Shown here in pieces: positions 11,658-36,400 of a stretch of DNA of 64,000 nt. The notes under the pieces were generated by a model. It saw only the letters and a program-made list of their open reading frames with translations. It was not told the origin of the DNA and did not search any database. Each line of letters starts with the position of its first letter. Position 1 is the stretch's first letter. Both the position numbers and the translations under genes were made by a program. The stretch comes from a virus (Duplodnaviria; Caudoviricetes): positions 1,893-65,892 of the IMG/VR virus record IMGVR_UViG_3300017714_000004; one strand, written 5' to 3'.

Positions 11658-12365
11658 TTAGTCTTCAGATTCAATATCTGCAAGAACCATTGCACGGAAA
11701 CCTTCGGATGCTTCTGAGTGATCAAAAACATATGAAACCGTGACACGCCAATCGTCTGTAGACGCAGCGTGATACATTACTTTATCAGATTCACCATAGT
11801 GACCAAAGTATGCTGCCTTACAAGTCCATTCGCCTGGCTTGTCCTGACAACGAACAACTTTTTTCGTCTCTGGGTGAATGTACTCAAAGTAACCTGAACC
11901 ATCTTCTGAGTAAGAGAAGATTAGATTGAAGCCTGGAGCATTTGCATTATTGTGCCATGAGATAAATCCTTTTGGTGGATATACTGCGGCAAGTGCATTA
12001 TGCTTGACTGACAAAAAGTTCATCATCTTATCGTTTAAGTCACGTAGGTGATGAGTCATGTCACGTTTGAAAAGTGGATCTGCGTCCTTCTCAAACATCA
12101 TGTGTGCTTTATCTGAAAGTTTAAAGTTGTAACCAACAAGTTCGTCTGGGAAACCTTCGTGTCCTTGACCCTGTGCAACGATCTCATCCATATGAACTGG
12201 TCCAACAAAGTATGGACGCTGTCGAATGTGTTGTGCAGAGGATAGGTGACAGTTCTCTTCGAAACCTTTCATGGTATGCAACTTGGCGTATTCGTTTAGA
12301 ATCTCAAGAAGTTCAGGGTTATTAACCTCGATGTGCTTGAGATATTGGTCGTTTACCTGTGTCAT
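11658..12365 (-). CDS. Putative 2OG-Fe(II)/cupin-fold oxygenase (235 aa)
   Basis: YPPKGFISWHNN...YHAAST...RVTVSY fits a double-stranded beta-helix with H-x-N, a distal H and a conserved R. Confidence 0.55.
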   Translation of the reverse strand: MTQVNDQYLKHIEVNNPELLEILNEYAKLHTMKGFEENCHLSSAQHIRQRPYFVGPVHMDEIVAQGQGHEGFPDELVGYNFKLSDKAHMMFEKDADPLFKRDMTHHLRDLNDKMMNFLSVKHNALAAVYPPKGFISWHNNANAPGFNLIFSYSEDGSGYFEYIHPETKKVVRCQDKPGEWTCKAAYFGHYGESDKVMYHAASTDDWRVTVSYVFDHSEASEGFRAMVLADIESED

Positions 12366-13099
12366 ACGATTGGAGTATCCTTATTTAAACCTGCCGAGAA
12401 GTGACGTAGTATCACTGGTCCCGTTTCAGGTTTTGTTATCGCCCAATTAAGAGCGTTGTAATAATTCCACCTCAAGTCGTCATCAAAGATACCAACCTTG
12501 AGGTCCTTATATTTTTCTTCTTTCTCGACTAACCACCAAAGAGAAAATTGGTCCCAAGACTTGAGACTGTCAATATACCCTTCTGGCCACCAAGTATCGT
12601 TCATTTGCCTGAACGTCAAATCCCACCAGTCATTCATGAATTCACGAACAATTGGTTTGGTCATATCATATAAACATACACCACCGCATAATGTAAACTT
12701 CGCACTACCTTCTGGAGTATCAAAGTCTCTTTCTGCGTAAATATAGTCACGATCATCTGTCAATGCAGAGAAGACCACATCATGGTCTTTCATTTCATCC
12801 CAAACCTTGATAATGTCTTCATGCTCACATTCCATGTCGGCATCAATATACATTGTCAAGTCATACGGAGATTTTGCCATCCCCCATAGTTTAGCGCGGT
12901 AGTGGTCATCACAGAATATAATATCATCTGCTACTTCTCTACCACGGTCATCAATAAATCGTTCTTCTGTAACAATACAGATCTTACATTCTTCTTCAGG
13001 TTCATAATAGTCCCTGAGAGACTCTGCAAGATTTAATCCGTACAAATAAAAGTTTCGTTTCTTGGACGAAACAATTATAAATCCTTTAGTCTTTTCCAT
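12362..13099 (-). CDS. GT-A fold glycosyltransferase (245 aa)
   Basis: AKSPYDLTMYIDADM (DxD), GGVCLY, WDQFSLW and ILRHFS motifs typical of nucleotide-diphospho-sugar (GT8-like) transferases. Confidence 0.8.
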   Translation of the reverse strand: MEKTKGFIIVSSKKRNFYLYGLNLAESLRDYYEPEEECKICIVTEERFIDDRGREVADDIIFCDDHYRAKLWGMAKSPYDLTMYIDADMECEHEDIIKVWDEMKDHDVVFSALTDDRDYIYAERDFDTPEGSAKFTLCGGVCLYDMTKPIVREFMNDWWDLTFRQMNDTWWPEGYIDSLKSWDQFSLWWLVEKEEKYKDLKVGIFDDDLRWNYYNALNWAITKPETGPVILRHFSAGLNKDTPIV

Positions 13100-13547
13100 T
13101 AGTCTCGGCCTCTAGTTGGTCTTGTAGAATCATGATTGAGTACATGTCGACTTCAATCTTAGATTTTGCACGACGCAATTTTGCCTTCAACTTGCGGTTT
13201 TTGGAACTTTTAATATCATCTACTTCAAAAGCTTCCATTTTATAATTGAAGAGTTTTTCAAGTTTGCGTGCTTTGTCATGTTCCTCATCACGCATCTTCT
13301 CTTCTTCTGCCTGTGCCTTCTTGCGAATAACGCGATCGGTTGTTTCCTTATCAATCGCATCAGCACCTAAGGCCTCGACTACTTCATTAAACAGTTCGTT
13401 TTCAACACCGTTCTTATCATGCCGATGTAAAAACATTTGTTGGGCGGTTACTCTACCCACATCATCTTCAAGTTCTAAAATACAGTTTAGTTCTTTCTTT
13501 TCGTCTGTTTCCCAGAACGCATTATTCATCCATTGCTTACGACTCAT
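13086..13547 (-). CDS. Hypothetical protein (153 aa)
   Basis: Clean ORF with a GGAG RBS, overlapping the start of the glycosyltransferase; charged helical C-terminus. Confidence 0.75.
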   Translation of the reverse strand: MSRKQWMNNAFWETDEKKELNCILELEDDVGRVTAQQMFLHRHDKNGVENELFNEVVEALGADAIDKETTDRVIRKKAQAEEEKMRDEEHDKARKLEKLFNYKMEAFEVDDIKSSKNRKLKAKLRRAKSKIEVDMYSIMILQDQLEAETNGKD

Positions 13548-13656: not shown

Positions 13657-16600
13657 TTATGCAACCCTACAGTATAGTGTGTAGACTTCTGGAGTATGTA
13701 CTAGAGTGTCACTAATCGTTGCACCAACATAGTTACCTAGGAAGGAGCGTGAGTAGTTGCCACCGAAGTTGCGTGAGTAGTTACCAGTAAATCCGCGTGA
13801 GTAGTTACCAGTGAAGTCACCTACGTATGTAGATACACGATCACGTGAGTAAGTACCGGAGTATGCAGAACTACGGATTCTTGAGTAAGCAGATACACGG
13901 ACACGTGAGTAGTTACCTACGAAATCACGTGAGTAGTTGCCTACAAAGTCACCGACGAAGTCACGAGCATATGCTCCTGTGTACTCACCAGCAAACGTTC
14001 TTGCATAGTTTCCAGTAAAGTCACCAGCAAAGTCACGAGTATATTGACCAGAGAACCCACGAGAGTAGTTACCAGTAAACGTTCTTGCATAGGTTCCTGT
14101 GTATTCACCAACATAGTTTCTTGCGTAGTTACCTACGTAGTTTCCACCAAATTGTCGTGAGTAAGTTCCAGAGTAAGCACCAGTGTATTCACCAACAAAG
14201 GTTCTTGCATAGTTACCTACGTAATCACCAGCGAAGCCACGTGCGTAGTTTCCTACGTAGTTTCCACCGAAGTCGCGAGTATAATTACCAACATAGTTTC
14301 CACCGAAGTCACCAACATAATCACCGATGAAGTTACCAGCGTAGTTACGTGAGTATTGACCAGAGAACGTTCTTGTGTAGTTACCAGTGAAGTCACCAGC
14401 AAAGTTGGTTACACGATCACGAGCATATGCTGAACTACGGTTACGAGTGTATACCGAAATTCGGTTACGTACGTATGCAGAGTAACGAGTACGTGTAGAT
14501 GTACGAGTATACTCACCAGTGTAGTTACCAGCGAAATCGCCTGCGTATCCACGAGCATAGTTACCTACGTAATCACCAGCGTATCCACGAGCATAGTTTC
14601 CTACGAAGTTGCCAGCAAAGTTAGTTACGCGATCTCTTGTGAAATCTCCAACGTAGTTAGTGATACGAGTTCTTGCATAAGCAGAACCACGGTTACGAGT
14701 CGAGGTACGAGTCGAGGTACGTGTGAAGTCACCAATGTAGTTAGTGATACGAGTACGTGCATAAGCAGAGTAACGAGTACGTGTAGAAGTTCGAGTAGAA
14801 GTTCTTGCGTAGTTTCCTACGAAGTTACCAGCAAAGTTAGTTACACGGTTACGAGTAAAGTCACCAACATAGTTAGTTACACGAGTTCTTGCGTATGCAG
14901 AGTAACGAGTACGTGTAGAAGTTCGAGTACTTGTACGAGCATAGTTACCGACATAGTCGCCAGCGTATCCTAGAGTACGAGTATAGTTACCAGTGTAGTC
15001 ACCAGCATAGTATCCAGTACGTGTGTAGTTACCAGTTGCAGTTCTTGTTCGTGTTGATGTACGAGCATAGTTACCAGTATAGTTACCAGTGCGTGTGCGA
15101 GAGTAATCACCGGCATAGTACAATGTTGCGGCCCGATTACGTGAGTAATCTCCAGCGTATGAGAACGCACGGTTACGAGCGTAATCTCCAGCAAAGTTGC
15201 CTGTGAAGTTAGTTACACGGTCACGAGCGTAATCTCCAGCATATGATGCTGCACGTGTGCGAGAGTAATCACCGGCATAGTTACCAGCATATGATGCTGC
15301 ACGGTTACGAGCGTAATCTCCAGCATATGATGCTGCACGTGTGCGACCATAGTTACCAACAAAGTCTCCGGTATAGTTAGTAGCACGAGTACGACCATAG
15401 TTACCAGTATATGTTACGCCACGAGTGTAGTTACCAGTATAATAAGAAGATACGGAACGATTACGTGTGTAAGTTGCTGATCCGGTACTGGTTCGTGTGT
15501 AAGTTGTTGTTGTGGTGAAGTTTCCGGCATAACTAGTTGTGCCTGGGTCCCAAGAAACACCCCATCGCTGGTAACTAGATCCGCTTCGGAGAGTACCACG
15601 GGTATACGTCTTACCATTATATAAAATAACAGTTGTACTAGAAGAAACCGTACCACCCAATCCGTCAGAAGAGCCGTAGCTTATATTGTAATCGCCCTCC
15701 AACCTAATTTTAAGTTCAATTCGGTTACTATATGAGTTAACACCCCAGTAAGTTGAGCCACCTTTACCATCTAAATAAACATCATTTCTATAGGTGCCGC
15801 CACCAATTGAACTACGTGTTGAATATGCGGTACGAGTAAAGTTACCAGCGTAATATAAGTTACGACTATAGTTACCAGTATATGATGTTCCGTTAGAAGA
15901 AGTTCTAGTGTAGTCAAGCGTTGCAGCACGTCCTCTAGAGTAATCTCCAGCAAAGTTACCAGTAAAGTTGGTTGCGCGGTTACGCGAGTAGTTACCAACA
16001 TAAGATGCGGCACGAGTACGACCATAGTTACCAGTATATGTCGCATTACGTGTACGAGTAGATGTACGTCCGTAGTTACCAACATAAGATGCGGCACGAG
16101 TACGACCGTAGTTTCCTACGAAGTTACCTGCGTAGTTAGTAGCACGAGTACGGCCATAGTTACCAGTATAGTTACCAGTACGTGTACGTCCGTAGTTACC
16201 AGTGTATGTTACACCTTCAGCACGAGTACGTCCGTAGTTTCCTACGTATGAGAATGCACGGTTACGAGCATAATCACCAACATAGTTACCCGCATAATAC
16301 AATGTACGTGTATAGTTTAGTGTACGCGTTGATGTACGTGTTGAGTTACGTGTGTAGTCGTATGTTTGATAGCGAGTACGTGTTGAAGTTCTTGCGTAAT
16401 TTCCCACATAATCGCCAGCATAGTTACCAGCATATCCACGAGCATAGTTACCAACAAAATCACCTGTGAACGTTGTTGCATAGTTACCAACAAAATCACC
16501 AGCAAAGTTAGTTACACGGTCACGTGAATAGTTACCTACGTAATCACCAGCATAGTTACCAGCGTATCCACGTGCGTAGTTACCAACAAAGTCGCCAGTA

Positions 16601-18414
16601 AATGTGGTTGCATAGTTACCTACGAAGTTACCACCATAGTTTCCTACGAATGTTCTTGCATAGTTACCTACGAAATCACCAGTAAAGGTAGTTGCGTAGT
16701 TGCCTACGAAGTTTCCGGCAAAGTTAGTGACGCGATCACGAGTATATGCAGAATAGCGAGTACGAGTTGACGTACGGGCATATGCTGAATAACGTGTACG
16801 AGTAGATGTACGAGTAGAAACACGAGCGTAGTTACCAACATAATCACCAGCATAACCACGAGAGTAGTTGCCTGCGAAGCCACGTGAGTAGTTACCCACG
16901 AATCCACGAGCGTAGTTACCTACGAAGTTACCAGCGAAGTTAGTAACTCGATTGCGTGTGTATGATGAAACACGTGCACGAGAGAAAACGCCTGCGAAGT
17001 TTGTTACACGGTCACGTGTGTAATTAGTTATACGAGTACGGGTGTAGTCTGCTGAGTAAGCAGATGTACGAGTTCGAGTACTAGTACGTGCATAAGTTGA
17101 TACACGGTTGCGTGTGTAGGTACCGGCATATGCAGATACACGGTTACGGGAATAAGTTCCTGAGTAAGTTCCGGTGTATGCTGACACACGAGTACGAGTG
17201 TAGTCTGCTGTGTAAGCAGAACTGCGTGTACGTGAGTAAGTACCTGTGTAAGTTGATACACGACCACGAGTATAAGAAGAAACTCTATTGCGTGAGAATG
17301 TACCAGTAAATGGTGTGATTCGGTTTCGGACATATGTAGAAACACGTGAACGGTTGTAAGTACCGGCAAAATAACCAGTAAATGCAGTTAGTCTGTTACG
17401 TGTATATGATGAAACGCGAGTTCTTGCGTAGTTGCCTACATAGTCACGAGCATAGTTTCCTACGAAGTCACGTGAATACGCTCCCGTATATTCTCCAACA
17501 AACGTACGTGAGAAAGTATCTACACTATTACGAGTATATGTTGAAATACGGTTACGAGTATATGCAGAGATTCTTGTACGTGTGTAAGCTGAGTTACGTG
17601 TACGAGAGTATGCAACGTCGACAATAGTACGACGGGTGTTAGAGGCAGAACCTCGTGGTACCCATGTACCTGCTAGAGTTGGAGCACCTTGTGCAGATGA
17701 ACGCAACTGGTATGAACCAATCGCACCTGCTGTTGCTCGGAGTGACTTAGCGCGTTGACCAAGTGTATACTTGATTTCCGCGTCTGACATTTCTTTAAAA
17801 CCGCTGAATGATGAAGTACCATCATAGTCGGTTGCAACTGGACGTGTAGTGGTAACACCGGCTGGTGGTGTTGCCAAAGTAACTTTCTTCCAGATGTGGT
17901 ATTGAGTTGTTGTACCGTCACCATGAGTATCGGAGAACACACCATCGATGTGTTTGGTCCAATCACTGCCTGGCGAGGACGTTGAAAGTTCATATGCACC
18001 CTGAAGACCTAGGGTCTCCACATTCTTTAGTGCACGATTTGTGAGATTATCTAAATCCGAGTCTACCATTTCGTAGAAGCCAGGATTAGAATTATCTGCA
18101 TAATAACCGACAGGACGGGCAAAATCAGAACCAGTCTCACTTGCAGAACCGCCAACCTGTTTCAAGGTTGTGGTTACACTCGTACCAGTGATAGCAGACA
18201 TCGGGTGTGTTCCCGCTGGTTCGTTGTAGAAAGTATCTACAAATGAACCGATGTTTGTACCATTGGTTAGACTGATGTCACCGACATCACCAGCAGAGGC
18301 CTCTGCAAGTGCTTCACCCACTTTTACCGCAAGATACATTTCTTGCGCTGGAGTGAATTCCTGTAGGTCACCATCGGTATTCTTAATTTTTAGTGGTATA
18401 CTAGATGCTGACAC
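13657..18414 (-). CDS. Mirror-repeat fibre protein (1585 aa), predicted giant antiparallel beta-hairpin
   Basis: About 268-aa N-terminal domain, two ~600-aa arms of tetrapeptides ([YF]xG[ND], YxRx, Rx[ST]x, STRT) and a ~90-aa non-repetitive centre; late promoter upstream. Confidence 0.8.
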   Translation of the reverse strand: MSASSIPLKIKNTDGDLQEFTPAQEMYLAVKVGEALAEASAGDVGDISLTNGTNIGSFVDTFYNEPAGTHPMSAITGTSVTTTLKQVGGSASETGSDFARPVGYYADNSNPGFYEMVDSDLDNLTNRALKNVETLGLQGAYELSTSSPGSDWTKHIDGVFSDTHGDGTTTQYHIWKKVTLATPPAGVTTTRPVATDYDGTSSFSGFKEMSDAEIKYTLGQRAKSLRATAGAIGSYQLRSSAQGAPTLAGTWVPRGSASNTRRTIVDVAYSRTRNSAYTRTRISAYTRNRISTYTRNSVDTFSRTFVGEYTGAYSRDFVGNYARDYVGNYARTRVSSYTRNRLTAFTGYFAGTYNRSRVSTYVRNRITPFTGTFSRNRVSSYTRGRVSTYTGTYSRTRSSAYTADYTRTRVSAYTGTYSGTYSRNRVSAYAGTYTRNRVSTYARTSTRTRTSAYSADYTRTRITNYTRDRVTNFAGVFSRARVSSYTRNRVTNFAGNFVGNYARGFVGNYSRGFAGNYSRGYAGDYVGNYARVSTRTSTRTRYSAYARTSTRTRYSAYTRDRVTNFAGNFVGNYATTFTGDFVGNYARTFVGNYGGNFVGNYATTFTGDFVGNYARGYAGNYAGDYVGNYSRDRVTNFAGDFVGNYATTFTGDFVGNYARGYAGNYAGDYVGNYARTSTRTRYQTYDYTRNSTRTSTRTLNYTRTLYYAGNYVGDYARNRAFSYVGNYGRTRAEGVTYTGNYGRTRTGNYTGNYGRTRATNYAGNFVGNYGRTRAASYVGNYGRTSTRTRNATYTGNYGRTRAASYVGNYSRNRATNFTGNFAGDYSRGRAATLDYTRTSSNGTSYTGNYSRNLYYAGNFTRTAYSTRSSIGGGTYRNDVYLDGKGGSTYWGVNSYSNRIELKIRLEGDYNISYGSSDGLGGTVSSSTTVILYNGKTYTRGTLRSGSSYQRWGVSWDPGTTSYAGNFTTTTTYTRTSTGSATYTRNRSVSSYYTGNYTRGVTYTGNYGRTRATNYTGDFVGNYGRTRAASYAGDYARNRAASYAGNYAGDYSRTRAASYAGDYARDRVTNFTGNFAGDYARNRAFSYAGDYSRNRAATLYYAGDYSRTRTGNYTGNYARTSTRTRTATGNYTRTGYYAGDYTGNYTRTLGYAGDYVGNYARTSTRTSTRTRYSAYARTRVTNYVGDFTRNRVTNFAGNFVGNYARTSTRTSTRTRYSAYARTRITNYIGDFTRTSTRTSTRNRGSAYARTRITNYVGDFTRDRVTNFAGNFVGNYARGYAGDYVGNYARGYAGDFAGNYTGEYTRTSTRTRYSAYVRNRISVYTRNRSSAYARDRVTNFAGDFTGNYTRTFSGQYSRNYAGNFIGDYVGDFGGNYVGNYTRDFGGNYVGNYARGFAGDYVGNYARTFVGEYTGAYSGTYSRQFGGNYVGNYARNYVGEYTGTYARTFTGNYSRGFSGQYTRDFAGDFTGNYARTFAGEYTGAYARDFVGDFVGNYSRDFVGNYSRVRVSAYSRIRSSAYSGTYSRDRVSTYVGDFTGNYSRGFTGNYSRNFGGNYSRSFLGNYVGATISDTLVHTPEVYTLYCRVA
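13720..17610 (-). repeat. Coding 12-nt-period tetrapeptide repeat region (two arms: ~15810-17610 and 13720-15531)
   Basis: Recurrent gtagttacc / acgagt motifs on +, encoding GNY / TR units. Confidence 0.9.
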
Positions 18415-18475: not shown

Positions 18476-18514
18476 AAAAAAAATGTGCATAAACGGGGTC
18501 TACGCACATTTTTT
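18476..18514. terminator. Terminator-like hairpin
   Basis: AAAAAAATGTGC...GCACATTTTTT inverted repeat flanked by A/T tracts, downstream of the chaperone gene. Confidence 0.55.
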
Positions 18515-18567
18515 AAAAAATATTTACTTTACTTATAATATTCTAATTTCAGAGATTAATTAAATAA

Positions 18568-19020
18568 TTATTGTGGGGGTTCTGGCCAGTTAACATCTTC
18601 CATAGATTCGATACCAGATAGATTTCCCATGATATCGCGCAACTCTTGACGATATCCCCTCCATGCATTTAGCATATCATCTGACAGCCCCGCATCTGGA
18701 AGTTGAGTCCAGTCGGTACGAGATATTGCTTGATCTCTTTGAGATCGAACTGCTCCCTCGAATGAGTTGCTATCAAAAGACCATTGACTTTTATCCCATC
18801 GATAAAAGGGTGATGGTTTAATTGGTCTTTTAGACCATCCATTATCCCAGTAATTATTTTTACCAAAATTGACCCAGTCTTCACCCTCGTTGGTTATATC
18901 TCTAACGACCATATCGTCAATGACATCTCCATCACTTGGTCCGTCTACAGCTATAGACATAACTGAAGTTGACCTAACCTCACCAGTTTCTCTATCTACG
19001 TATGCTAAAATTTTACTCAT
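18568..19020 (-). CDS. Tail fibre assembly chaperone (150 aa)
   Basis: C-terminal RSQRDQAISRTDWTQLPDA...WRGYRQELRDI...WPEPP, the hallmark of phage tail assembly chaperones. Confidence 0.85.
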   Translation of the reverse strand: MSKILAYVDRETGEVRSTSVMSIAVDGPSDGDVIDDMVVRDITNEGEDWVNFGKNNYWDNGWSKRPIKPSPFYRWDKSQWSFDSNSFEGAVRSQRDQAISRTDWTQLPDAGLSDDMLNAWRGYRQELRDIMGNLSGIESMEDVNWPEPPQ

Positions 19021-19035
19021 TTCTATTTCCTATAA

Positions 19036-20460
19036 TTAAGGGGATGGTATACCGCCGCCACCGCCAAAGTTTGGTGGTAAGGTCGGGGTATAACTTGTTG
19101 TTGTTGGAGTATATGTAATATTTGTGCTTCGTTGTGCGGTTGCTCCCGCAGGATCAGATACTAATATATTTAATGTGAAGGAAGCTGCTTGCGCGCCAGG
19201 TGTCAATTGGATTTCATTACCTACGGTCTGAACAAAAACTCCGTTTGTACTTCCAGTGGTGGTATATGATACTGTCAATGCCTGACCTTCAGGGTCCATA
19301 AATAATGGAGTAATGGCAGTAGTTGCTCCAGAAGTTAGTGCATATGATGAATCTATACCACTGACATATTGAGGAGCAGCATTTGTACTAGCAGCAGTAT
19401 GCGTCATTGTTGTGTTTATATCAACATCGTTAATACCATCTGATCCAGTAATAGTTAATGTAAAGTCCGCATCATCATCCCCCGCCGTTACACGAATAGT
19501 GGTCCCATTATTCCAAATGTAAATCGTTGCTCCACCTAAAGTTCCAGTAGTGGAAGTTGACAATGTAATACCACCACCTTCAGGATCGATGAACAGTGGA
19601 GATATATCAACATACCCACCTTGAGGTATATTATATGATGATGCAATACCTCCTTGATAACTAGGGGCGCTATTTGTACCTGTCGTAGTGCCACCCGTTG
19701 GAGATGAATTGTCTCCATTAAATCTACCGATAATCCATTGCTGTCCTGACGAATTATGGCCTGGAAATTGCCAGGCGGGTTGATAGAAAGTTATAGTATT
19801 TGTGGCTCCTCTCCATTTACCACTAGCCACCCATCCGAAAAACATTGGTATAGTCTGAATCGGAAAATGCATAAGATTAGATAGACAGATCCAGTAATTG
19901 AATATGTCATCTGATGCACCGAAAGTGGCCACGTTATGATTATTATACGGAGTACTAGAAGTATTTACTTGCACAGTACCGACAATATCAAAGGTTGTCT
20001 CGACACCTGTTGCAAAAGAAACTGTCCCGTCGGGAGCATAAACTTCAAGACCATAATCACTTGCACTTGGAGATGTTACGCTAGGTTTGATGAGTACCCA
20101 CTCCACTTTAGGGGTTATCTTACCCACGTTAGGTGCAGTGATTGCGTAAGTAGAATAGTCCAGAACAGGATTGAAACCCATATCAATAACTGGATCTGAT
20201 AAGTTCACATAAGCACTCACACCAAAAAACTGAGTGGCAGTTCCACTACTTCCAGCAATATGCCATCCAGAAGAATCATTTTTATTAACGTTTATAGGTC
20301 GACCAAAAAGTAAAGCACCATCCTCATAGTCATCCGTCGAAAATGGTATTGCATCTCCAGCATCAGCAATACCATAAGACATAACCTGAAAGTTCTTATA
20401 TACGTCATCAACAATTATATTGCCGTCTTCGTTTCGAATTTCTATTCCGTAAGTACTCAT
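19036..20460 (-). CDS. Putative receptor-binding/tail-tip protein with two cadherin/Ig-like repeats
   Basis: Likely start is MSTYGIEIRN at 20460 (ATGA overlap with the upstream gene). It has YG(I/L)E motifs and two NxAPxY..GI..SY...PLFxDPEG...FTLxI..SD repeats. Confidence 0.6.
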   Translation of the reverse strand: MSTYGIEIRNEDGNIIVDDVYKNFQVMSYGIADAGDAIPFSTDDYEDGALLFGRPINVNKNDSSGWHIAGSSGTATQFFGVSAYVNLSDPVIDMGFNPVLDYSTYAITAPNVGKITPKVEWVLIKPSVTSPSASDYGLEVYAPDGTVSFATGVETTFDIVGTVQVNTSSTPYNNHNVATFGASDDIFNYWICLSNLMHFPIQTIPMFFGWVASGKWRGATNTITFYQPAWQFPGHNSSGQQWIIGRFNGDNSSPTGGTTTGTNSAPSYQGGIASSYNIPQGGYVDISPLFIDPEGGGITLSTSTTGTLGGATIYIWNNGTTIRVTAGDDDADFTLTITGSDGINDVDINTTMTHTAASTNAAPQYVSGIDSSYALTSGATTAITPLFMDPEGQALTVSYTTTGSTNGVFVQTVGNEIQLTPGAQAASFTLNILVSDPAGATAQRSTNITYTPTTTSYTPTLPPNFGGGGGIPSP

Positions 20461-20852
20461 CCCTTTCTCACTATCCAATAATATGCGTCATATTTATCAT
20501 TTCTTTTTAAAACAAAACTACCATTCTGTCTACTTTCTATTGAAGCATTTCCTACCATAATAGAAGCTGGAGCTACAATGGCGATATCTTGTATGCTACT
20601 ATTAACAAAATCTGGGACGTTTACTGTTATTTCTATTAATTCTCCGTATACAAACCAAGCCGGGGCTGCGCCAACACCAGTTAAAAGGTTACCTAAAGGA
20701 TTAGTGACCCAGCCTGGATTAGCAGCAGCTGCCGAATCATATTTATTATTGTCTGCTGATACAAGTCCGTAAGATACTAAAGATCCTAACGTGCTAGTTG
20801 TTGATACTATTTTATCATTAGAACTATTGAATACTTCTAATCCATAACTCAT
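20457..20852 (-). CDS. Small tail-tip protein (131 aa)
   Basis: The MSYGLEVFNS N-terminus parallels the next gene; coupled by ATGA overlaps on both sides. Confidence 0.55.
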   Translation of the reverse strand: MSYGLEVFNSSNDKIVSTTSTLGSLVSYGLVSADNNKYDSAAAANPGWVTNPLGNLLTGVGAAPAWFVYGELIEITVNVPDFVNSSIQDIAIVAPASIMVGNASIESRQNGSFVLKRNDKYDAYYWIVRKG

Positions 20853-23800
20853 GATAGTTTACCTAGTTTAACACGCAGGCCTGTTTCTTCATTAGTAGAT
20901 GTTGCGTCATAAATTCTGATATTATCCCCAGTAAGAACCATTCTTTCTCCTGAAGAAGTATATCCGGTAGCTTCTGTAGTATCTATACCTGTCGCATCAC
21001 CACCGATAACTAAAGTTTCTGCGACAGTAGCAATTCTAGTATTTAGTTCTTCGGCTATTAAAGAGTCTACTTCGATAGTATTTGCAGAGATAAACCCACC
21101 ATCGATGACTGTTGCACCACCATCGTCTCGACTCAGGGCACCTTGTGTGTTCGTAAAGGTTACCAAGCCGTCGAATGAGTATGACTTAAATGGGGGGCTG
21201 AACAATAGGTTACCGGAAGCAGTTGTCGCAGTTCGACCTCCCACAGTATCTTCTACTGCAAAGAATCTTGCCGCCCATAGACTTCCGGTTAGGTCTGTGT
21301 CTTGCGGTGGAGAGATAGACCATTCATCTGTTAGTCCAGTAAATGTGCCGTCAGTGCCGACTGTTCCGGTTCCTATGAAATTGAAACTGGTTGCGGTTGG
21401 AGTGGCAGGGCCGTCAGTTGTTCCGTCTCCGACAAGATAGTAGACATAACCGTTCTCTTGTTGAGGTATAGCACTTGGATCTACTGTGCCTGGTTGTCCG
21501 TCCGTTGAAATCTTTACTGGTTCCGACCAAGTCAGTGTCGCGTCTGTTCCAGTAAGACCTTGCGTAGTTGCCGTTGCACGACATAACCACAATGGGTCGA
21601 GATCTGTATTGGATTCTTGTGGATCTTCTGTCCATCCACCAGACAAGTTCTCTACGAGATCATTGGTGAAACTATATGTCGCACCTACTGGACCCCAAAG
21701 ACCACCACTTGCTGCTGGTTTGTTCGCACTTCTTTTATAAACAGATGCGGAGAAGGTCGAGTAACCATCCTCACCGTTGTTGTGATCTTCATATGGTGCA
21801 GACCATGTACCACCCTCTTCAACACCCGTGTCTCCGTCTGTGGCAAATTGATATTCTACTGCCCAGATCTTACCATCTGGTGCTTCATCTGCTGGAATTT
21901 CTGCAACGGTGTCGTACCATCCGTCTGGTGGAACTAACGAGTTACCGTCTATGGTTAGAGTGCCACTAGATGTAACATTCACAGCGGCAGCCTCTGCTTG
22001 TGTTCTTGTTACGGCATCCGCCCCGAAGTTTACGAAACCACCTGTCGGACTCGATGGGGTTGTGGTTGTTCTTTGAACAATAACTGCTCTGAATGTGGAT
22101 CGACCATCACGACCAGAACCACCGGCGGTCGTTACGTCTGGTGTTGACCAAACGATAACGTCATCGACTATGATTGGGTCTGTGCTGGTACCGGAGTTCG
22201 GTTGCGTCGAAGCAATACCTGACGACACGTACAACTTCATGTTTGCGTCGTTTTCGTCTGGATTCTCCGGTACGGTCTTAGACCATCCACTTGGTTGTGT
22301 AAATGTCTTAGTTGAGAAGTCGAAACTACCACCTGAAGGTTTGCCTGCGTTGTTTGCAAGACTAGTATTCGACCACTTATAAACACTTAACTGAACGAAA
22401 CTGAATCCATCCTCTGCATCAACCGCATAGTTCATCACTAGTTTAGGCGCGCTGAAGGTTAATGTGTTGTCCGTACCAAGATACCCGATAAGACTCGCGG
22501 TCGTTCTGACTTCATATAGATTCAATGGATTTTCTAGGTCTAGTGCTGGCGGTTCCTCATACCAACTACCATCCGTGACGCCAGAAACGACCTCCGTGTC
22601 ACCTATCTTTTCAAAACGATCGTCTGTGAAATTGTATGTCACACCGTTGTTATCTGGGATCGGGCTTGGCAGTGTTGCGGATCGTGTGTATAGACCCTTG
22701 GAGTATGTTGACACACTCTCGATAATACCCAGAGTAGGTTCACTCCATCCGTCCGTGACTGCGTAATCTGTTCCAGTATCACCGATGACACTGAACGCAT
22801 AGGTAGATGACCATACGTCACCTGATCCTTCTGGGATACCTTCGAACCAAACACCCGACTCATTTGCAACGGAGTCTAGTGGATCGCCACCGAATACCTC
22901 GTTACCGAAGTCGAAGAAACCACCTTCTGGTTTAGATGGAGTTGGGATAGCGTCACCGACTTTCCATCCGGCTGGTTTAGGAACCTTGCGGTATACTGCC
23001 TTCTCGAAGATGGACTTACCGTTTTGTCCGTCCAGACCCGTAGAGGTCTTGACTGGATTAGTCCAGCTGATGTTTGTGTCTTCACCTGTAGGATCAGATA
23101 GTTCCGCATTAGTTGCGATACCGGAACTAACGTATAGGTCTCCGGTTGGATTACCATCTTCGTCTTGGGCTAGAGGGGGAACGATAGACCATCCTGCCGG
23201 TGGAGTCAGTGTCTGGTCTCCGAAATCAAATGACCCACCTGTTGGTGCAGTCAATGATGTTGTGGATCTCTTGAAGACAGAAACCTGTGCGTATGAATCA
23301 CCGTTGTTAGCATCAACGATGCCACCCAACTTATATGGCTCTGACCAATCTGTCGCGGTGATCGTTCCCTGTTGCGATAGGTAATCTCTGAATAGGAAGT
23401 TACATGCCCATAGGTCATCATCACCCGCTGGGATAGTGCCTGACCAATCCGAAGGTGGAGTTAGTGTGGCTGTAGGGAAGTCGAACGTACCGCCGCTAGG
23501 TGTCGTCGGTTGAGTTGGAGACCTCTGGTAGATTGTCGCTTGATAGAAAGAGGTTCCGTTTTCGCCTGGGTCAGTTGGACCACCACCGCCACCACTGGCG
23601 TCTTCTAGGTTAGTCCAATTGGTTCCGTCCCACTTTAAGACGTGTCCAACTAAAACATTAGAGGTTAACTGTACGTCACTTAGATCATCTAGTGATCCAG
23701 CACCCAAGTCACCAGCATTAGCTAGTTTTACCCAAGACCCTGCGTGGGCGAAATATCCAGCACCTGTCGCATGTACATGCGCGAACATACCGTGATAGGC

Positions 23801-24067
23801 AGACGCGCTTGGTAAGTCTGATTCAGTAGGGAATACATTACTGTATAGAATTTTGTTACTGCCAAGATCTAAGTCAGCACCTTCGATAACAGCACGAACT
23901 GCATCTGCGTCTAGACCAACATCAAAGTTATCTAAAGCAGATTGTATCAGAGCATTAACTTCATCTTCTGTTAGTTTAGATAAATCTATTTCTGAAAAGT
24001 TTTGATTAATTTTCAGAATAGCAGCATTAATATTATCTGCAAGATTGACTACTTGTATATTACTCAT
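20849..24067 (-). CDS. Tail fibre protein with tandem ~100-aa repeats (1072 aa)
   Basis: N-terminal INAAILKINQNF baseplate-anchor motif, about seven YxRS..P..PxGGxF(D/N)F...PxGW...LW...WSxP domains and a C-terminal ERMVLTGDNIRIYD...LRVKLG. Confidence 0.75.
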   Translation of the reverse strand: MSNIQVVNLADNINAAILKINQNFSEIDLSKLTEDEVNALIQSALDNFDVGLDADAVRAVIEGADLDLGSNKILYSNVFPTESDLPSASAYHGMFAHVHATGAGYFAHAGSWVKLANAGDLGAGSLDDLSDVQLTSNVLVGHVLKWDGTNWTNLEDASGGGGGPTDPGENGTSFYQATIYQRSPTQPTTPSGGTFDFPTATLTPPSDWSGTIPAGDDDLWACNFLFRDYLSQQGTITATDWSEPYKLGGIVDANNGDSYAQVSVFKRSTTSLTAPTGGSFDFGDQTLTPPAGWSIVPPLAQDEDGNPTGDLYVSSGIATNAELSDPTGEDTNISWTNPVKTSTGLDGQNGKSIFEKAVYRKVPKPAGWKVGDAIPTPSKPEGGFFDFGNEVFGGDPLDSVANESGVWFEGIPEGSGDVWSSTYAFSVIGDTGTDYAVTDGWSEPTLGIIESVSTYSKGLYTRSATLPSPIPDNNGVTYNFTDDRFEKIGDTEVVSGVTDGSWYEEPPALDLENPLNLYEVRTTASLIGYLGTDNTLTFSAPKLVMNYAVDAEDGFSFVQLSVYKWSNTSLANNAGKPSGGSFDFSTKTFTQPSGWSKTVPENPDENDANMKLYVSSGIASTQPNSGTSTDPIIVDDVIVWSTPDVTTAGGSGRDGRSTFRAVIVQRTTTTPSSPTGGFVNFGADAVTRTQAEAAAVNVTSSGTLTIDGNSLVPPDGWYDTVAEIPADEAPDGKIWAVEYQFATDGDTGVEEGGTWSAPYEDHNNGEDGYSTFSASVYKRSANKPAASGGLWGPVGATYSFTNDLVENLSGGWTEDPQESNTDLDPLWLCRATATTQGLTGTDATLTWSEPVKISTDGQPGTVDPSAIPQQENGYVYYLVGDGTTDGPATPTATSFNFIGTGTVGTDGTFTGLTDEWSISPPQDTDLTGSLWAARFFAVEDTVGGRTATTASGNLLFSPPFKSYSFDGLVTFTNTQGALSRDDGGATVIDGGFISANTIEVDSLIAEELNTRIATVAETLVIGGDATGIDTTEATGYTSSGERMVLTGDNIRIYDATSTNEETGLRVKLGKLS

Positions 24068-24293
24068 TTTTATCCTCTACTAAACGAAAGAGCAAATCTT
24101 TTATTTGAGACATGTCGTCTTTCAGACTCTTGACTTCTTCGGTTAATGTGTTAATATGTTCTTGCTTTTCGTTGTTTATTTTACTTAATTTTCTTGCAGT
24201 ATTTATTTCATTCTTGTTGGTATTTAGTATAGCTCCAGAACGCTTATCCCGCACTAGATTCATATGACCGTCTACCTTTATATGATTATTCAT
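24060..24293 (-). CDS. Small coiled-coil protein (77 aa)
   Basis: KVDGHMNLVRDKRSGAILN...LKDDMSQIKDLL; this type commonly follows the large baseplate-associated protein in marine T4-like phages. Confidence 0.7.
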   Translation of the reverse strand: MNNHIKVDGHMNLVRDKRSGAILNTNKNEINTARKLSKINNEKQEHINTLTEEVKSLKDDMSQIKDLLFRLVEDKNE

Positions 24294-24295
24294 AA

Positions 24296-27200
24296 TTAGT
24301 TCTGCTGCGGATCGCCTTCATCACCACCGTCACCACCGCCGCCCGGCGTGTCACCGTCTCCAGGCGTAGATGTAAAACCTTCACCAACGATCATCTTGAC
24401 TTCTCTGCTGAACGTTGAACCACGTAGAGTGCTGGTTGCTGTAACAGTAGCGTCAGTACCCTGCGGAACATTTGCAACGGTGAACGACGCGAAATCTCCA
24501 CGGTTAAGTGTTACAGTAGTTCCTGAATTAGTCCATGCGAGTCCGAAGGTTACGTTGATAGTGCTGTCCTGTTCAGATCCCCACATCATATGGAAGTCGA
24601 CAGAACTGTTTGCATCAACTGTCAACACTTGATCTGGAACGGTCGCGCCATCATGGAAGTTTTTAGGTTTAGTCGAATCCAGTGAATAGTATGTTAGAAT
24701 AGGATCTTGGTCATAAACAAAACCATCATCTGCATTCAAAAGAACCAACTGAGACTCAAGTGAGTCATCAACCAATGGGGCACCCTCTAGAGTATAGCTA
24801 ACATCTAATGGTATAGAGGTAGTTCCTGTAAGGGTGGTTCCATTGTCTAGACTATTGTCTGGACTAATGAATATTTCTATTCTTACTGTACCAGTGATGG
24901 CAACTTCTGGATCTAGATGTAGTGAATCGACAGTCCACGGTGCACCATTATCAAGCGAGTTGTTATGTTCATCGATAACGAGTCCATGCCCGCCCCAAGT
25001 AATCATGTTACCGCTAGAGTCAAGTTCACCAACATCAACGGAAATAACTTCCTGATAACCTATGTCTGCACCAGTACCTACGTTTCTTAGTTCTGCTCTA
25101 GGAGTGGCCTGGGTTGCAAAAGCACCAGAGTAAACAGGTAGTGCTACATCGTCAACATGAGTGATTCTGAAACCACACTCAAAAATCTCTCCCACTTCTA
25201 CTGGTCTATCCAACCACTTACCTGTGGCCAGGATAGTACTTCCTGTTAGAGAATCGTCCCCAACATTGACACTTCCTTTTTTAGGGTCATTGGTGTATAG
25301 TTGGAAATCACCATTATTATCGAACTTAGCAAACAATCGAACTCTTCGTGTACCTTGATGCCAGTACTCATCCGGAGTCATGTAATTATTGGTATCTGAT
25401 TCTGGATTGTACTGACTTAGGATACGAGGAGCGCCTGTGATAGATACCGAAGTTGGTAATTGACTTATCTCAGGGAATGCAACTGCTGATAAAGAAGTTC
25501 CTGTATCGTCGTTATCTTCACCACTGCCACCACCGGACGTGTCATCATTACCACCACCGGACGTGTCATCATTACCACCACCACCGGACGTGTCATCATT
25601 ATTTGACGTGTTAGTACCAGCGGTACCACCTGTTATCAAAGCGATTGCACGTAAATCTCTAATTACTGGAGACTTAGAAGAGTTATTAGATTGCATCACA
25701 ATCTTCACTTGGAAGACAGAGAATTGATCTGTATTGATTGTGTACTCATAGTCACGGAAAGTTGATGGATTGTCATCTGAAGGCATAGAGTTATCTGCTA
25801 ATGCTTCTACCCATAAAGGTTCGGTTTCAAGAGTATCTTCGTCTACTGCTGTTTTAACATAAACATCAAAGTCAGCACCTGCTGGTCTGTTCGCAGCGAA
25901 TATGATTTTTAGTCCCAGTGATGATTCATCAATCACTACTGGAATTGTAATGTGCTGTGCCGCGTCATCTGTATCAATGACATTCTCTAGAGTCAATGCA
26001 GAGGTTCTCTGCAAATCAATTAGAGGCGATACTTTAGTATCTGAGGTGCTCATGTTCAGGATCATCTTCATTGTAGGAGAAGAAGAGTTGTCGCTTGAAG
26101 CCACAACACTAGGGACCTGATTAGAGTTAAAGTCATTTAAGAATACAGTTTCTTCATTCCCTATTGCCATATTGAATGCAGCGGTAGTACGACCATTGCT
26201 ATTGCCATATGAAGTAGCATTTGTCTTTCTGACCTTTGATGATATACTTGTCGAGTTAGGAATAAGTGTCTGTATTTGTGGTACAAACTGGTCAAAGTAA
26301 ACTTGTTGTGATGCAACTATTGCAGAACCACCACCAGATATAGAAGAAGAAGCTTGTTGGTTAGTTGCTAGTTGTATACTATATCCTTCCCATGTAGGAG
26401 AGAGGACTTCGTGACTAGCATTTAACGCAGAAGCTGGAATACCAGATACTTCAGATGCTCCTGATATAGTGACCGTATTACCATCACTGAATCCATGTCC
26501 TTCATGAGTCACTTGTATAATACTTGAACCCAAGACGGTGTTTATTGGATTGCTCTCTAAAGCAGTCTTCGGTAGCATACCGTTGTCAAGAACTACTGAA
26601 CCGCTTGTCTGGAACTCTGCACGGTCTAACTTAAACATAAGGTCTTTAGTTTGATCCGGAGTCCATGTGAATCCGTTCTGTGAAAGGAATAGTGAACCTA
26701 ATGTAGGTTGCTTGGTTATTCTATCTTCACGACTTCCGAATACATTCTGATATGTCTCTGCGACATATACATTGTACTCTACCGACTCTGCAAGTAATAC
26801 TATACAGTATTCTTCACCACTTGTCAAGTATACTGGCTCATCAAATTCAACTACAGTTGGAGAGCCTTGTACATCCTCAATTGTTTCAGGATTGGTTGCA
26901 AGAACAATCTCATCAGGGTTGATGAACTTGACGCCGCCAGGCATAATACTGCTAGTTGGTATTCCATTCTCTACTGGACGAATCTGTACCTGTAGTGGAA
27001 TAACGCTGTCTTTAGTTTCAACGTAAATGTGTGCCCTAGTGATATACAAACCATTAGGGTTTTCAATCTGGTCAACATAGAAAGTCTGCGCCAATGGATC
27101 TCTTCGACCACGGACTCTTTCTATGACGCGAGTGGAACGTACTGTTCTCTGAACACTCTCGATAGATCCAGATGATGTGTATGATGCACGAGTAGTTGAT

Positions 27201-33467: not shown

Positions 33468-36400
33468 TTATAATGCCCCTATCTTAACTCTTGGGAAGGT
33501 GTTGACAGCATCGAATATTGAAATATTGTCAGCTCCAAATTCCATCCTTGCACCACTTGTAGCTGTATTTAGAAGACCACTAAGATCTAAAAATCCTTGG
33601 TTATTGGTCAACTCATCAAAGGAAGAGTTAGTAGTAGTTTCTATTCTATCTACTGTGGCACGGAACACCCGTCCACTATTAATGTGCCAGTATACATCAC
33701 CAATGAAAACTGTATCAACAGTACGGAAAGACCTTATCTGTGAAGACGCTGTGGCGTTTACGTTAGAAGGGAATGTGGTGTTTGTATCAAATATTACTGC
33801 GTTACCAAATCCACCAACCGGACCTTGTCCACCTTGGGTACCGGCAACACCTTGTCCACCTTGGACACCAATTGGACCGTCTGGACCTTGTCCACCTTGC
33901 TCACCCTGAGAACCAGTTGCTCCGGCAGCACCAGTATTACCTTTGACACCTTGTGCGCCTGTGTCTCCTGTTGCACCTTTAGTTCCTTGTGCACCTTGGT
34001 CACCTGTGTTACCTTTGACACCTTGGGCACCTGTGTCTCCTGTTGCACCTTTATTTCCTTGAGCACCTTGGTCACCTGTGTTACCTTTGGTTCCTTGGGC
34101 GCCTTGGTCACCAGTATTACCTTTAGCTCCTTGTGCGCCTTGGTCACCAGTATTACCTTTAGCTCCTTGTGCACCTGTGTCTCCTGTTGCACCTTTAACA
34201 CCCTGATTACCAACTGGACCTTGTCCACCTTGAGGACCGTTATTACCCGTCTGACCTTTTATTCCCTGATTACCAATTGGACCCTGTTCTCCTTGTGGTC
34301 CATTATTACCAGTCTGTCCCTTGATACCTTGGTTGCCGACAGGACCTTGTCCACCCTGTGGTCCGTTATTACCTGTCTGACCTTTAATGCCCTGATTACC
34401 GACAGGACCTTGTTCACCTTGAGGACCATTGTTACCTGTTTGTCCTTTTATACCTTGGTTACCAACGGGTCCTTGTCCACCTTGAGGACCATTGTTACCA
34501 GTCTGTCCTTTGATGCCCTGATTACCAACCGGGCCCTGTTCACCCTGTGGTCCGTTGTCACCAGTTTGTCCTTTAACACCTTGGTTACCGACTTCACCTT
34601 GAGCGCCCTGTGGACCATTATTACCTGTCTGTCCTTTAACACCTTGGTTACCGACTTCACCTTGAGCACCCTGTGGTCCATTATTACCAGTTTGACCCTT
34701 GACACCTTGAGCACCAACTGGACCCTGTTCCCCTTGAGGACCATTGTCACCAGTTTGACCTTTAACACCTTGGTTACCAACTGGACCCTGACCGCCTTGA
34801 GGACCGTTATTACCCGTCTGACCTTTGATACCTTGGTTACCAACTGGACCTTGTTCACCTTGAGGACCATTGTTACCAACGGCACCTTGGAAACCAACTG
34901 CTCCCTGTGAACCTTGTTCACCCTGATTACCAACTAAACCTTGCGCTCCTTGGAAACCTACTGGACCCTGATTACCTTGTTCGCCTTGAGGTCCTACTAG
35001 ACCTTGTGCGCCATCAGCACCCTGAGCACCTTTCTCTCCATCAGCACCTTGTGGACCATTGTCACCAGTTTGTCCTTTAACACCTTGGTTACCAATTGGA
35101 CCCTGTTCCCCTTGAGGACCATTGTTACCAGTTTGACCTTGCTCACCCTGTGGTCCAGTATCTCCATCAGCACCTTGAGGTCCTACTAGACCTTGTGCAC
35201 CAGTTTCACCTTGTGCACCTTTTTCTCCGTCAGCACCTTGGGCACCAACCAGACCTTGAGCACCATCTGCTCCTTGTGGTCCAGTATCTCCGTCAGCACC
35301 TTGAGGTCCTACAAGACCTTGAGCACCAGTTTCACCTTGTGCACCTTTTTCTCCATCCGCACCTTGAGGACCAACATTACCAACTTGACCCTGTGGACCA
35401 GCGACACCTTGTGGACCGTCTGCTCCTTGTGGTCCAGTATCTCCATCTGCTCCTTGAGGACCGGCATCGCCTGGGTTACCTTGTGGACCCACTGGGCCTG
35501 GAGTTGTACCCGCTGGACCTTGAGGGCCTGGGTCTCCTTCAAGTCCTTGCGGACCTACTGGGCCTGGAGTAGTACCTGCTGGACCTTTAGGGCCTGGATC
35601 TCCTTGAAGTCCAGTACCACCCTGCGCTCCAGTTGCTCCGGCAGCACCTGTAGAACCTGTAGAACCTGTTACACCTGTTGCACCTAATGGGCCTGGGTTA
35701 CCCTGAAGTCCGGCAACACCTTGAGCACCAACATCACCAGTAGCACCTTTATCTCCAACATTACCCTGAAGTCCGGCAGCACCTTGAGCACCAACTGCAC
35801 CAGTAGCACCTTTATCTCCAACATTACCTTGAATTCCAGCAGCACCTTGTGCGCCAGCAGAACCTTGTGGTCCTAATTCACCGACATTACCTTGAATACC
35901 AATAGCACCTTGAGCACCATCTGCGCCTTGTGCACCAACTGCACCAGCATTGCCTTGCAAACCAGTAGCACCAGTTACACCAGTAGAACCAGTGGCACCT
36001 TGCTCTCCAGCATTACCTTGGAGACCACGGAAACCTTGAGAACCTTGTTCACCTTGAGGACCGACTTCACCTACATTACCTTGAATTCCAGCAGCACCTT
36101 GTGCGCCAGCAGAACCTTGTGGTCCTAATTCACCAACATTACCTTGGACCCCTTGTGGTCCAACTGCCCCTGCATTACCTTGTGGTCCGACTTCACCTAC
36201 ATTACCCTGTAGGCCTACATTACCCTGAACACCTTGTATACCTTGAGGTCCAGTCTCGCCAGGATTACCTTGGAGACCAATAGCACCCTGTGATCCAGTC
36301 TCTCCTTGAGGACCAGTTTCGCCTGGGTTACCTTGAAGACCAATAACACCCTGAGAACCCTGTTCTCCTTGTGCTCCAGTTTCGCCTGGGTTGCCTTGTA

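Follow-up and report, generated by a model that had tools for sequence, protein, structure and literature searches.

What shape does a phage protein adopt when its two long repetitive halves read, tetrapeptide by tetrapeptide, as mirror complements of one another? This question is raised by gene P0001 (13657..18414), which lies on the minus strand of a 64,000-nucleotide stretch of DNA (positions 1,893 to 65,892 of the IMG/VR virus record IMGVR_UViG_3300017714_000004, Caudoviricetes; hereafter the window). The window is T4-like marine myovirus DNA, and P0001 encodes a protein of 1585 residues, a predicted fold-back fibre, from a GTG start that is matched by homologues opening with VSASSIPLK or MSASSIPLK at the same residue. 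Five parts can be told apart along the chain, all of them encoded on the minus strand. An N-terminal globular domain (residues 1-268; 17611..18414), the presumed attachment end, is found in 93 of 120 compared homologues and is followed by an N arm (residues 269-864; 15823..17610) of 145 tetrads and eight two-residue stutters. A hypervariable tip, or loop, domain (residues 865-969; 15508..15822), with a detectable homologue in none of the 120 compared hits, then leads into a C arm (residues 970-1565; 13720..15507) that is the mirror complement of the N arm, and the chain closes with a short tail (residues 1566-1585; 13660..13719; TISD...EVYTLYCRVA) whose ETYTLYVRxA-type ending is shared by most homologues. 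Each arm is 596 residues long, the N arm starting with YSRT at residue 269 (nucleotide 17610) and the C arm ending with YVGA at residue 1565 (nucleotide 13720). Taking the evidence below together, we consider it likely that in this T4-like marine myovirus the protein forms an antiparallel beta fibre that folds back on itself, with a receptor-binding tip at the loop.

The mirror relation was first noticed by hand, in a reading of the DNA without database searches (the sequence-only reading), which had divided both arms into tetrapeptides and counted the same number of them before the first two-residue stutter. We parsed both arms by script, using the stutter spacings given in that reading, and assigned tetrads to four classes, namely A ([FY]xRx), B (Arg-initial), C ([FY]xGx) and D (STRT). 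The hand parse was reproduced exactly: 104 tetrads precede the first stutter and the following stutters are spaced 3,1,7,24,2,2,2 tetrads in both arms, with the dipeptides YD,LN,LY,VT,LD,TS,LY,AY in the N arm and LG,GY,GN,LY,VT,SY,AT,TT in the C arm read backwards. Because the stutters fall at the same rungs in both arms, the pairing is ungapped, and tetrad starts obey i+j=1831 across 596 residues. Among the 153 facing tokens, all 57 Arg-initial tetrads stand opposite an [FY]xG tetrad (32 and 25 in the two orientations), precisely the number that had been counted by hand, and so do all 15 STRT tetrads, as had also been claimed. The remaining tokens comprise 37 A:A pairs (YxRx:YxRx), 12 C:C pairs, 15 A:C or C:A pairs, nine pairs with an unclassed tetrad and the stutters, each of which faces another stutter (8/8). 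Thus no B or D tetrad is found opposite any class except C; Gly:Gly-type rungs occur in this protein and Arg:Arg-type rungs never do. The tetrad period is four, and the YxRx units are separated by runs of two, three or four tetrads. That the arms are complementary rather than copies can be read directly from the sequence.

The mirror pattern is real and far beyond chance. When the arms were displaced by -12 to +12 tokens, at most 35 B:C pairs were obtained, with 22 mismatches, and at most three of the eight stutters were aligned. Such shifted registers had been put forward as a possible refutation; once run, they scored far worse, both in the window protein (35:22) and in the 21 close homologues described below. 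None of 5,000 free shuffles reached zero mismatches (maximum 35 B:C pairs), and neither did any of 20,000 shuffles that kept the A frame or of 20,000 permutations of the B/C/D slots (minimum 6-7 mismatches). Over the 84 slots at which both arms carry a B, C or D tetrad, the hypergeometric probability that no Arg or STRT tetrad opposes another is P=1.35e-13. A count made without any classes gave the same picture: there are no Arg:Arg pairs at i+j=1831 and 1833, whereas the remaining twelve odd registers between 1819 and 1845 have 15-37 each, and at i+j=1833 Arg stands opposite an aromatic residue 110 times and opposite Gly 57 times. When mutual information was pooled across all positions, the periodicity dominated it and the register was not singled out, even in the window protein; likewise, pair tables for the small-residue face mainly reflect the phase between positions 2 and 4 and carry no added information.

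Mirror symmetry of this kind could be the relic of an inverted DNA duplication, and the DNA itself was examined for such a trace. When the N-arm DNA was compared with the reverse complement of the C-arm DNA, identity at the mirror offset was 29.7%, which is below that at many other offsets (up to 36.2%, median 23.9%), and only seven inverted repeats were found, all of them short (16-22 nucleotides) and imperfect. Since the mirror offset is not special in the DNA and inverted repeats are few, the symmetry is held at the protein level, in agreement with the sequence-only reading, which had stated that the DNA is no inverted repeat. Moreover, reverse-complemented codons would not yield complementary residue classes. 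The mirror-offset identity and the inverted-repeat search together effectively refute an inverted duplication, to which we assign a negligible probability.

A finer rule operates within the Arg:Gly rungs. In the window protein a Thr at position 3 of the Arg tetrad goes with a Phe at position 1 of the partner tetrad in 17/17 cases, and an Ala goes with a Tyr in 9/9; pooled over 19 related proteins, the corresponding figures are 251/253 for Thr/Phe and 81/83 for Ala/Tyr. By our own arithmetic the exact probability of the 17/0 and 0/9 table is ~3e-7, with counts that are inflated by block duplications. One hydroxyl is thereby retained per rung, and i+j=1833 is therefore favoured as the contact register. 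As far as covariation can tell, this hydroxyl rule points to direct contact between facing tetrads. The avoidance of Arg:Arg at two adjacent registers may correspond to the neighbours, direct and diagonal, that a residue has in an antiparallel ladder, or to two neighbour strands in a closed bundle. It could alternatively be supposed that the arms do not touch and that each matches a third, two-fold symmetric partner, for example a virion protein or a host polymer. Such a partner would have to change its pattern in step in every phage lineage, and both the hydroxyl compensation and the avoidance of Arg:Arg at exactly two adjacent registers indicate direct contact; we therefore regard this explanation as very improbable.

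The arms have the character of extended strands. All 87 Arg residues of the N arm occupy odd positions and all 80 of the C arm occupy even ones, so that the Arg of each arm share one face. This patterned face consists of R, Y, F, G and S; the opposite one is made of T, N, A, V, S, D and G and is nearly devoid of large residues. Every stutter measures two residues, and the stem insertions and deletions (indels) seen in three homologues (L003, L007 and L010, described below) are all even, with lengths of 2, 4, 12, 16, 28 and 30. Two residues is thus the only invariant period, the mark of a beta strand in extended form; a fixed-length coil would lose phase. We infer that the arms are paired extended beta strands whose ladder measures about 160-200 nm; taking 0.33 nm per residue, our arithmetic gives ~197 nm for the window arms, a figure that tilting or coiling of the strands would lower somewhat. 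The chains probably bury the small-residue face between them, leaving the Arg/aromatic face outside with large residues beside small ones.

The shafts of phage fibres are usually parallel trimers, and those that are known are, to our knowledge, coiled coils, triple beta-helices or beta-spirals. A parallel beta-solenoid or triple beta-helix would be the conventional expectation for P0001, with local contacts only and the mirror pattern as a by-product of the repeat grammar. The octad-like units of its arms, such as YxRxFxGN, do recall the VxGxxxxx repeat given for T4 gp5 in a passage of PMC3004832, and that passage describes octapeptide units that build a triple-stranded beta-helix prism 110 Å long. 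The likeness lies in short Gly-containing repeats in a phage tail protein. However, gp5 has parallel chains that wind around one another, make local contacts and repeat a unit of constant length, eight residues, whereas the P0001 arms have a period of four, accept indels of any even length and are complementary over long range and antiparallel. Frame-keeping shuffles never reached zero mismatches, shifted registers fail in the window protein and in all 21 close homologues, mirrored indels have no reason to occur in a fold with local contacts, and the even indels of L003, L007 and L010 would dephase a coil of fixed length. The solenoid, which the sequence-only reading had named as a possible refutation, thus finds no support, and the single Arg parity of each arm and the even-only indels fit a beta ladder. 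With no fixed repeat unit and a complementarity that is long-range and antiparallel, a gp5-like beta-helix or solenoid shaft is excluded as a template, and we give local-contact folds in general only a very slight chance.

If the arms do pair, the two arms of related proteins should be found to change together, and the homologues bear on this directly. At E<=1e-3 we found 205 relatives in a large protein collection and 136 in a representative library, whose source names, where given, are either 'hypothetical protein' or gene coordinates only; the fibre protein itself matched no Pfam family at E<=1 and no PHROG. A scan of viral contigs gave 43 loci and, from these, 21 distinct complete homologues of 677-2282 residues, the other loci being truncated, duplicates or cases in which the open reading frame (ORF) picked was that of an adjoining gene; L018, L019 and L033 are near-identical and hence not independent. 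One antiparallel register extends from the boundary of the N-domain to the middle domain in 20 of the 21, over arms as different in length as 114, 248, 262, 398, 530, 562 to 638 and 940 residues. Summed over all 21, 1285 Arg or STRT (B/D) tetrads stand opposite Gly (C) tetrads and four do not, in segments that were located by maximising a score that rewards B:C pairs; the best shifted register of each homologue gives about 60:40 good to bad. Arg:Arg pairs number 0-3 at the register s and 0-2 at s+2, compared with means of 5-37 elsewhere. The register is also fixed independently by the two domain boundaries, for s minus protein length is 242-247 in 17 of the 21, those closest to the window protein, and 255-256 in L023 and L042, whose N-domain is slightly longer; it is shifted in L020.

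We then used a comparison that is blind to the mirror, namely plain MAFFT pairwise alignments of whole proteins. Against L010, the indels of the window protein read -12,-16,-30,-4,+4,-2 along the N arm and -2,+4,-4,-30,-16,-12 along the C arm, that is, the same events in reverse order at mirrored positions. Against L003 they are -2,+28 in the N arm and +28,-2 in the C arm, against L007 there is a -2 in each arm, and against L018 the N arm has +8,+24,+108 and the C arm +108,+32. Sequence identity is symmetric as well. For L003, the N-domain is 99% identical, the outer N arm 100%, the inner N arm 90%, the middle 30%, the inner C arm 89% and the outer C arm 100%; for L017, the blocks from the outer N arm to the outer C arm give 85, 31, 13, 33 and 83%. 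The idea that a change of length in one arm would be matched by an equal one in the other, which the sequence-only reading had offered as a check, thus stood in 20 of the 21 homologues and failed in L020, to which we return below. Taken with the constant i+j, the mirrored indels support that reading's claim that the chain would fold back with its arms antiparallel and in register. Its further proposals, namely a length of about 200 nm, trimerisation and contacts of Arg over Gly/Ser with aromatic ladders, are conjectural.

The ends and the middle of the protein evolve very differently. Across relatives, the repeat arms are flanked by the conserved N-domain and the C-terminal tail, whereas the tip of L003 is only 25% identical to that of the window protein although the N-domains are 98.9% identical, and the best match to the tip, in L010, reaches 55%. 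From a conserved N-domain and tail and a fast-evolving middle it follows that the tip is to be placed at the loop, and this hypervariable domain is presumably the receptor-binding end.

One relative, WJE88074.1 of Phage C48C1 (OQ984149.1, Kyanoviridae; locus L001, 4477-14520), is a true homologue of 3347 residues that is annotated as a hypothetical protein, and it was the only record among 50,697 GenBank phage records to cover at least 80% of the query. It shares with P0001 the mirror code and the gene order (chaperone gene, fibre gene, three small genes), and differs in being of double length and in carrying globular inserts in the C arm that act as bulges. Its inner stem, of 430 residues per arm, keeps a single register with the same code, and each of the nine phase breaks in the N arm has a mirror counterpart in the C arm, at spacings unlike those of the window protein. 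Further out, the C arm is cut by the globular inserts and the N arm is uninterrupted; the Gly-type C-arm segments between inserts, of which several measure exactly 76 residues, abut one another like tiles along the N arm, a fit that is suggestive only because the outer N arm is highly periodic. The stem looks knob-decorated, and one of its globular inserts is duplicated. Judging from such comparisons, the relatives appear to show compensatory rung flips, paired indels and bulges with globular knobs (the last in C48C1), much as an RNA stem does.

Among more distant relatives, homologues at ~33-46% identity keep the pairing rule with an altered order of tetrads, and the rule is therefore a matter of compensation and not of simple inheritance. 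P0127 (724 residues) follows it over 41 tetrads with no exception, and P0007, P0004, P0139 and P0143 do so over long stretches. When the window protein and 67 distant hits, each with at least ten B/D tetrads, were scored, the best antiparallel segment exceeded the parallel control in 62 of 68. In P0004, P0006 and P0008 the indels lie in irregular inner parts and are not readable as matched or unmatched. Five further relatives (P0012, P0013, P0025, P0042 and P0060) are Arg-free and strongly acidic, yet keep the N-domain, the ETYTLYVRxA tail and arms with an aromatic residue at every fourth position. Indels in the Arg-free relatives give a mixed picture; between P0025 and P0027 the N arm differs by -36 and the C arm by -38. 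A second family (P0084, P0122, P0128 and P0137) begins with the motif M.YG[LI].[IV].G.D and has the same Arg/Gly tetrad arms between other end domains, with an antiparallel signal of 32 vs 9 in P0084. The same N-terminal motif opens a 480-residue protein in the window (19036-20478, minus strand), which has no such arms. By comparison of these sequences, the stem-loop may be transferable between proteins as a module.

Several observations weigh against a fold-back beta fibre, and the first of these concerns which chains pair. Sequence covariation is blind to whether the contacts lie within a chain or between chains. The arms could thus pair antiparallel between chains, either in a head-to-tail extended dimer with an N-domain at each end and the tips in the middle, or in an oligomer where the N arm of each chain lies on the next chain's C arm; the i+j rule and the compensated indels would follow from this arrangement just as well, and the absence of Arg:Arg pairs at both 1831 and 1833 would suit a strand with two neighbours, one from its own chain and one from another. 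Nevertheless, a conserved N-domain and tail around a hypervariable middle fit one attachment end and one distal tip, and a head-to-tail dimer would bury the variable domain in the middle of the rod. We infer, then, that pairing takes place within one chain and judge pairing between chains unlikely; a trimer of hairpins with mixed within- and between-chain contacts would be compatible with the fold-back fibre.

Further difficulties come from arm lengths and from distant relatives. The C arm of L020 is 24 residues short relative to its near-twin L018 (+84 instead of +108), with no match in the N arm, and its outer stem is displaced by 28 in i+j. This is the sole unmatched arm-length change among the 21 close homologues, and it may be either a tolerated bulge or an assembly error. 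Unmatched changes also occur further away, among the Arg-free relatives, namely -12 in P0018 vs P0017 and +114 in P0042 vs P0060. We also fixed the register of 64 proteins from alignment columns at the two domain boundaries and scored the first 24 tetrads. Thirteen of the 64 had at least six B/D tetrads and no exception, and the totals of 288 good vs 188 bad pairs are far from clean because many arms lose phase after a few tetrads; shifting this register by four or eight residues made matters worse, with 79-211 good and 290-412 bad. Similarly, the advantage of the antiparallel segment over the parallel control was at least two-fold in only 16 of the 68 proteins, and the segment holds 582 of 1347 tokens.

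Structure prediction is silent on the arms, and their composition raises a further question. AlphaFold2, given residues 737-1097 of the window protein as a single sequence, returned a mean predicted local distance difference test score (pLDDT) of 30.1, and for P0127, with a 64-row alignment, pLDDT was below 50 across arm residues 292-690. A two-chain prediction of N-arm residues 269-348 with C-arm residues 1486-1565, run without controls, scored 0.00 vs a mark of 0.32 and speaks neither for nor against pairing. The ends of P0127 were modelled with confidence, since pLDDT exceeded 90 across residues 1-280 and lay at 88-97 over the final 30, and long strands were predicted at 260-294 and 686-722, the latter confident at its end; the model thereby agrees with the two termini meeting. 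In searches with Foldseek against PDB and BFVD the P0127 model had no match at E<=0.001, and a profile search of PDB with the fibre gave a single match, to an anti-sigma factor at E=0.53. For the N-domain no relative was found in Pfam, PHROG, PDB or BFVD, and an Atlas search with it returned only unnamed viral clusters, with a score of 0.81. As to composition, the N arm holds 87 Arg and the C arm 80, 167 in total, with net charges of +66 and +47, and a net charge of +113 per chain on a single face still needs explaining. A composition count found no Lys, His, Cys, Met or Trp in either arm. A cationic rod with 167 Arg is unusual in composition, and the cationic arms could bind anionic surface polymers.

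With these reservations, a fold-back fibre would be built as follows. The conserved N-domain (residues 1-268) would sit at the proximal end, from which the chain would run outward along the N arm (269-864) to the small hypervariable tip domain (865-969) and come back along the C arm (970-1565), so that its last 20 residues could dock on the N-domain. Both arms would be extended beta strands with a strict two-residue alternation of inward and outward residues, one face bearing a four-residue pattern of Arg, Tyr/Phe, Gly and Ser and the other only Thr, Asn, Ala, Val, Ser and Asp. They would pair antiparallel at constant i+j, such that Arg never faces Arg and an Arg-initial tetrad lies opposite aromatic-x-Gly, and the rung hydroxyl would be kept by combining a Thr at position 3 with Phe and an Ala with Tyr. 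Several chains, probably three, would be bundled with the small-residue face inside, and the tip would bind the host. Any inner part of such a hairpin is one contiguous piece of the gene, and phages could therefore exchange a tip and its matched stem as a nested cassette. Swaps of this kind could tune fibre length and host range at once, and the symmetric identity profiles fit such exchange.

How far this departs from known systems can be judged from further comparisons, the nearest functional precedent being the T4 gp37 needle. According to what Bartual et al. reportedly found in 2010, the gp37 chain reaches the tip and returns, the needle consisting of strands that run both up and down. Both proteins would have strands that fold back and, at the turn, a tip that binds the receptor, the window protein being known in this respect from sequence covariation only. 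In P0001, however, the fold-back would be the whole shaft, with 596 residues per arm and up to 940 in a homologue, and the two termini would therefore meet. Nor does the window protein have any sequence, Pfam or fold match to gp37, and the Arg/aromatic/Gly tetrad code is not a gp37 feature. In the parts of the two sources that deal with it, the gp37 needle is the thin distal end of the fibre, about 150 x 25 Å (PMC3004832), and binds seven iron ions through His residues of the trimer in a His-x-His motif (PMC3004832, PMC6957217). The arms of P0001 are without His and therefore without this metal motif, unlike the gp37 needle. We accordingly rejected membership of the gp37 needle family, there being no His, no sequence or fold match and a fold-back that spans the whole shaft.

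The arms of SMC and Rad50-type chromosome proteins are antiparallel coiled coils of alpha-helical heptads. They resemble the predicted fibre in having termini that meet at one end, a long intramolecular antiparallel arm, a small apex domain and length-matched halves; they differ in that the window protein alternates every two residues as a beta strand does, and the two are related neither in sequence nor in function. An RNA stem-loop offers a formal analogy, with its complementary, non-identical antiparallel arms, compensatory changes and, in the relatives, bulges. Here, though, it is classes of side chain on a beta ladder that pair, and less strictly than bases do, as Gly:Gly-type rungs are tolerated and the ban applies to Arg:Arg-type rungs alone. 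Our search of the literature, which covered open-access text, found no account of such a tetrad repeat or of a fibre whose whole shaft folds back. Together with the database searches, this agrees with the sequence-only reading, whose author knew of no described fibre of this kind. Whether P0001 represents a new protein architecture, namely a two-stranded antiparallel beta ladder, in register over 150 to more than 230 rungs, that is written in a small digital side-chain code and evolves like an RNA stem, with tip and stem perhaps exchanged as cassettes, is in our estimation a question with even chances.

The genes around P0001 accord with a role in the tail. The fibre gene lies in a tail-fibre/baseplate module beside an assembly chaperone gene, and the order is the same in C48C1, whose fibre gene follows one annotated 'tail assembly chaperone'. 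Elsewhere the window holds baseplate wedge genes (phrog_219, phrog_438) and several fibre genes, one of them collagen-like. Among GenBank phages, C48C1 comes nearest, with 53% identity in a gp6-like protein, followed by Pelagibacter phage HTVC008M with 33%; megablast of window positions 18500-26500 against GenBank phages gave no match. The chaperone gene (18568..19020, minus strand; phrog_4912 at 2e-12, PF16778 at 1.3e-14) is directly upstream of the fibre gene, and in 36 of 45 loci it likewise lies upstream, at 28-50% identity. The chaperone diverges about as fast as the tip, even where the N-domain of the fibre is 99% identical; across loci there was no clear correlation between chaperone identity and tip identity. 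Directly after the fibre gene come three conserved genes of 153, 245 and 235 residues (11658..13547, minus strand), which tblastn found in the same position in 32, 32 and 29 of the 45 loci, respectively. The 245-residue product is 85-100% identical in most loci, and 56% in the most distant, despite a far more diverged fibre. None of the three matched anything in Pfam, PHROG or PDB, and they may assemble or modify the fibre. Further along the window, a collagen-like fibre gene of 1277 residues (33468-37301, minus strand) matches many PHROG tail-fibre families. It contains on the opposite strand an ORF of 361 residues (33825-34910), where local GC content rises up to 0.52; it is antisense and probably an artefact of the repeated Gly-X-Y codons.

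To conclude, phage fibres decide which cells get infected, and the family described here is abundant in marine viral metagenomes and has so far been left without annotation. Its function class, that of a phage adhesin fibre, is ordinary; its predicted architecture is not. The family opens the questions of how a beta ribbon of hundreds of residues keeps its register and how the length of a fibre can evolve without breaking its fold. If the fold-back fibre is true, it would provide a natural, programmable rule set for long beta ribbons, and with it a design vocabulary for register-specific beta pairing that consists of Arg:aromatic/Gly pairing, hydroxyl compensation and even-only indels. For the ocean phages themselves, it raises the question of whether the exchange of tip and stem cassettes may act as a driver of host-range change.

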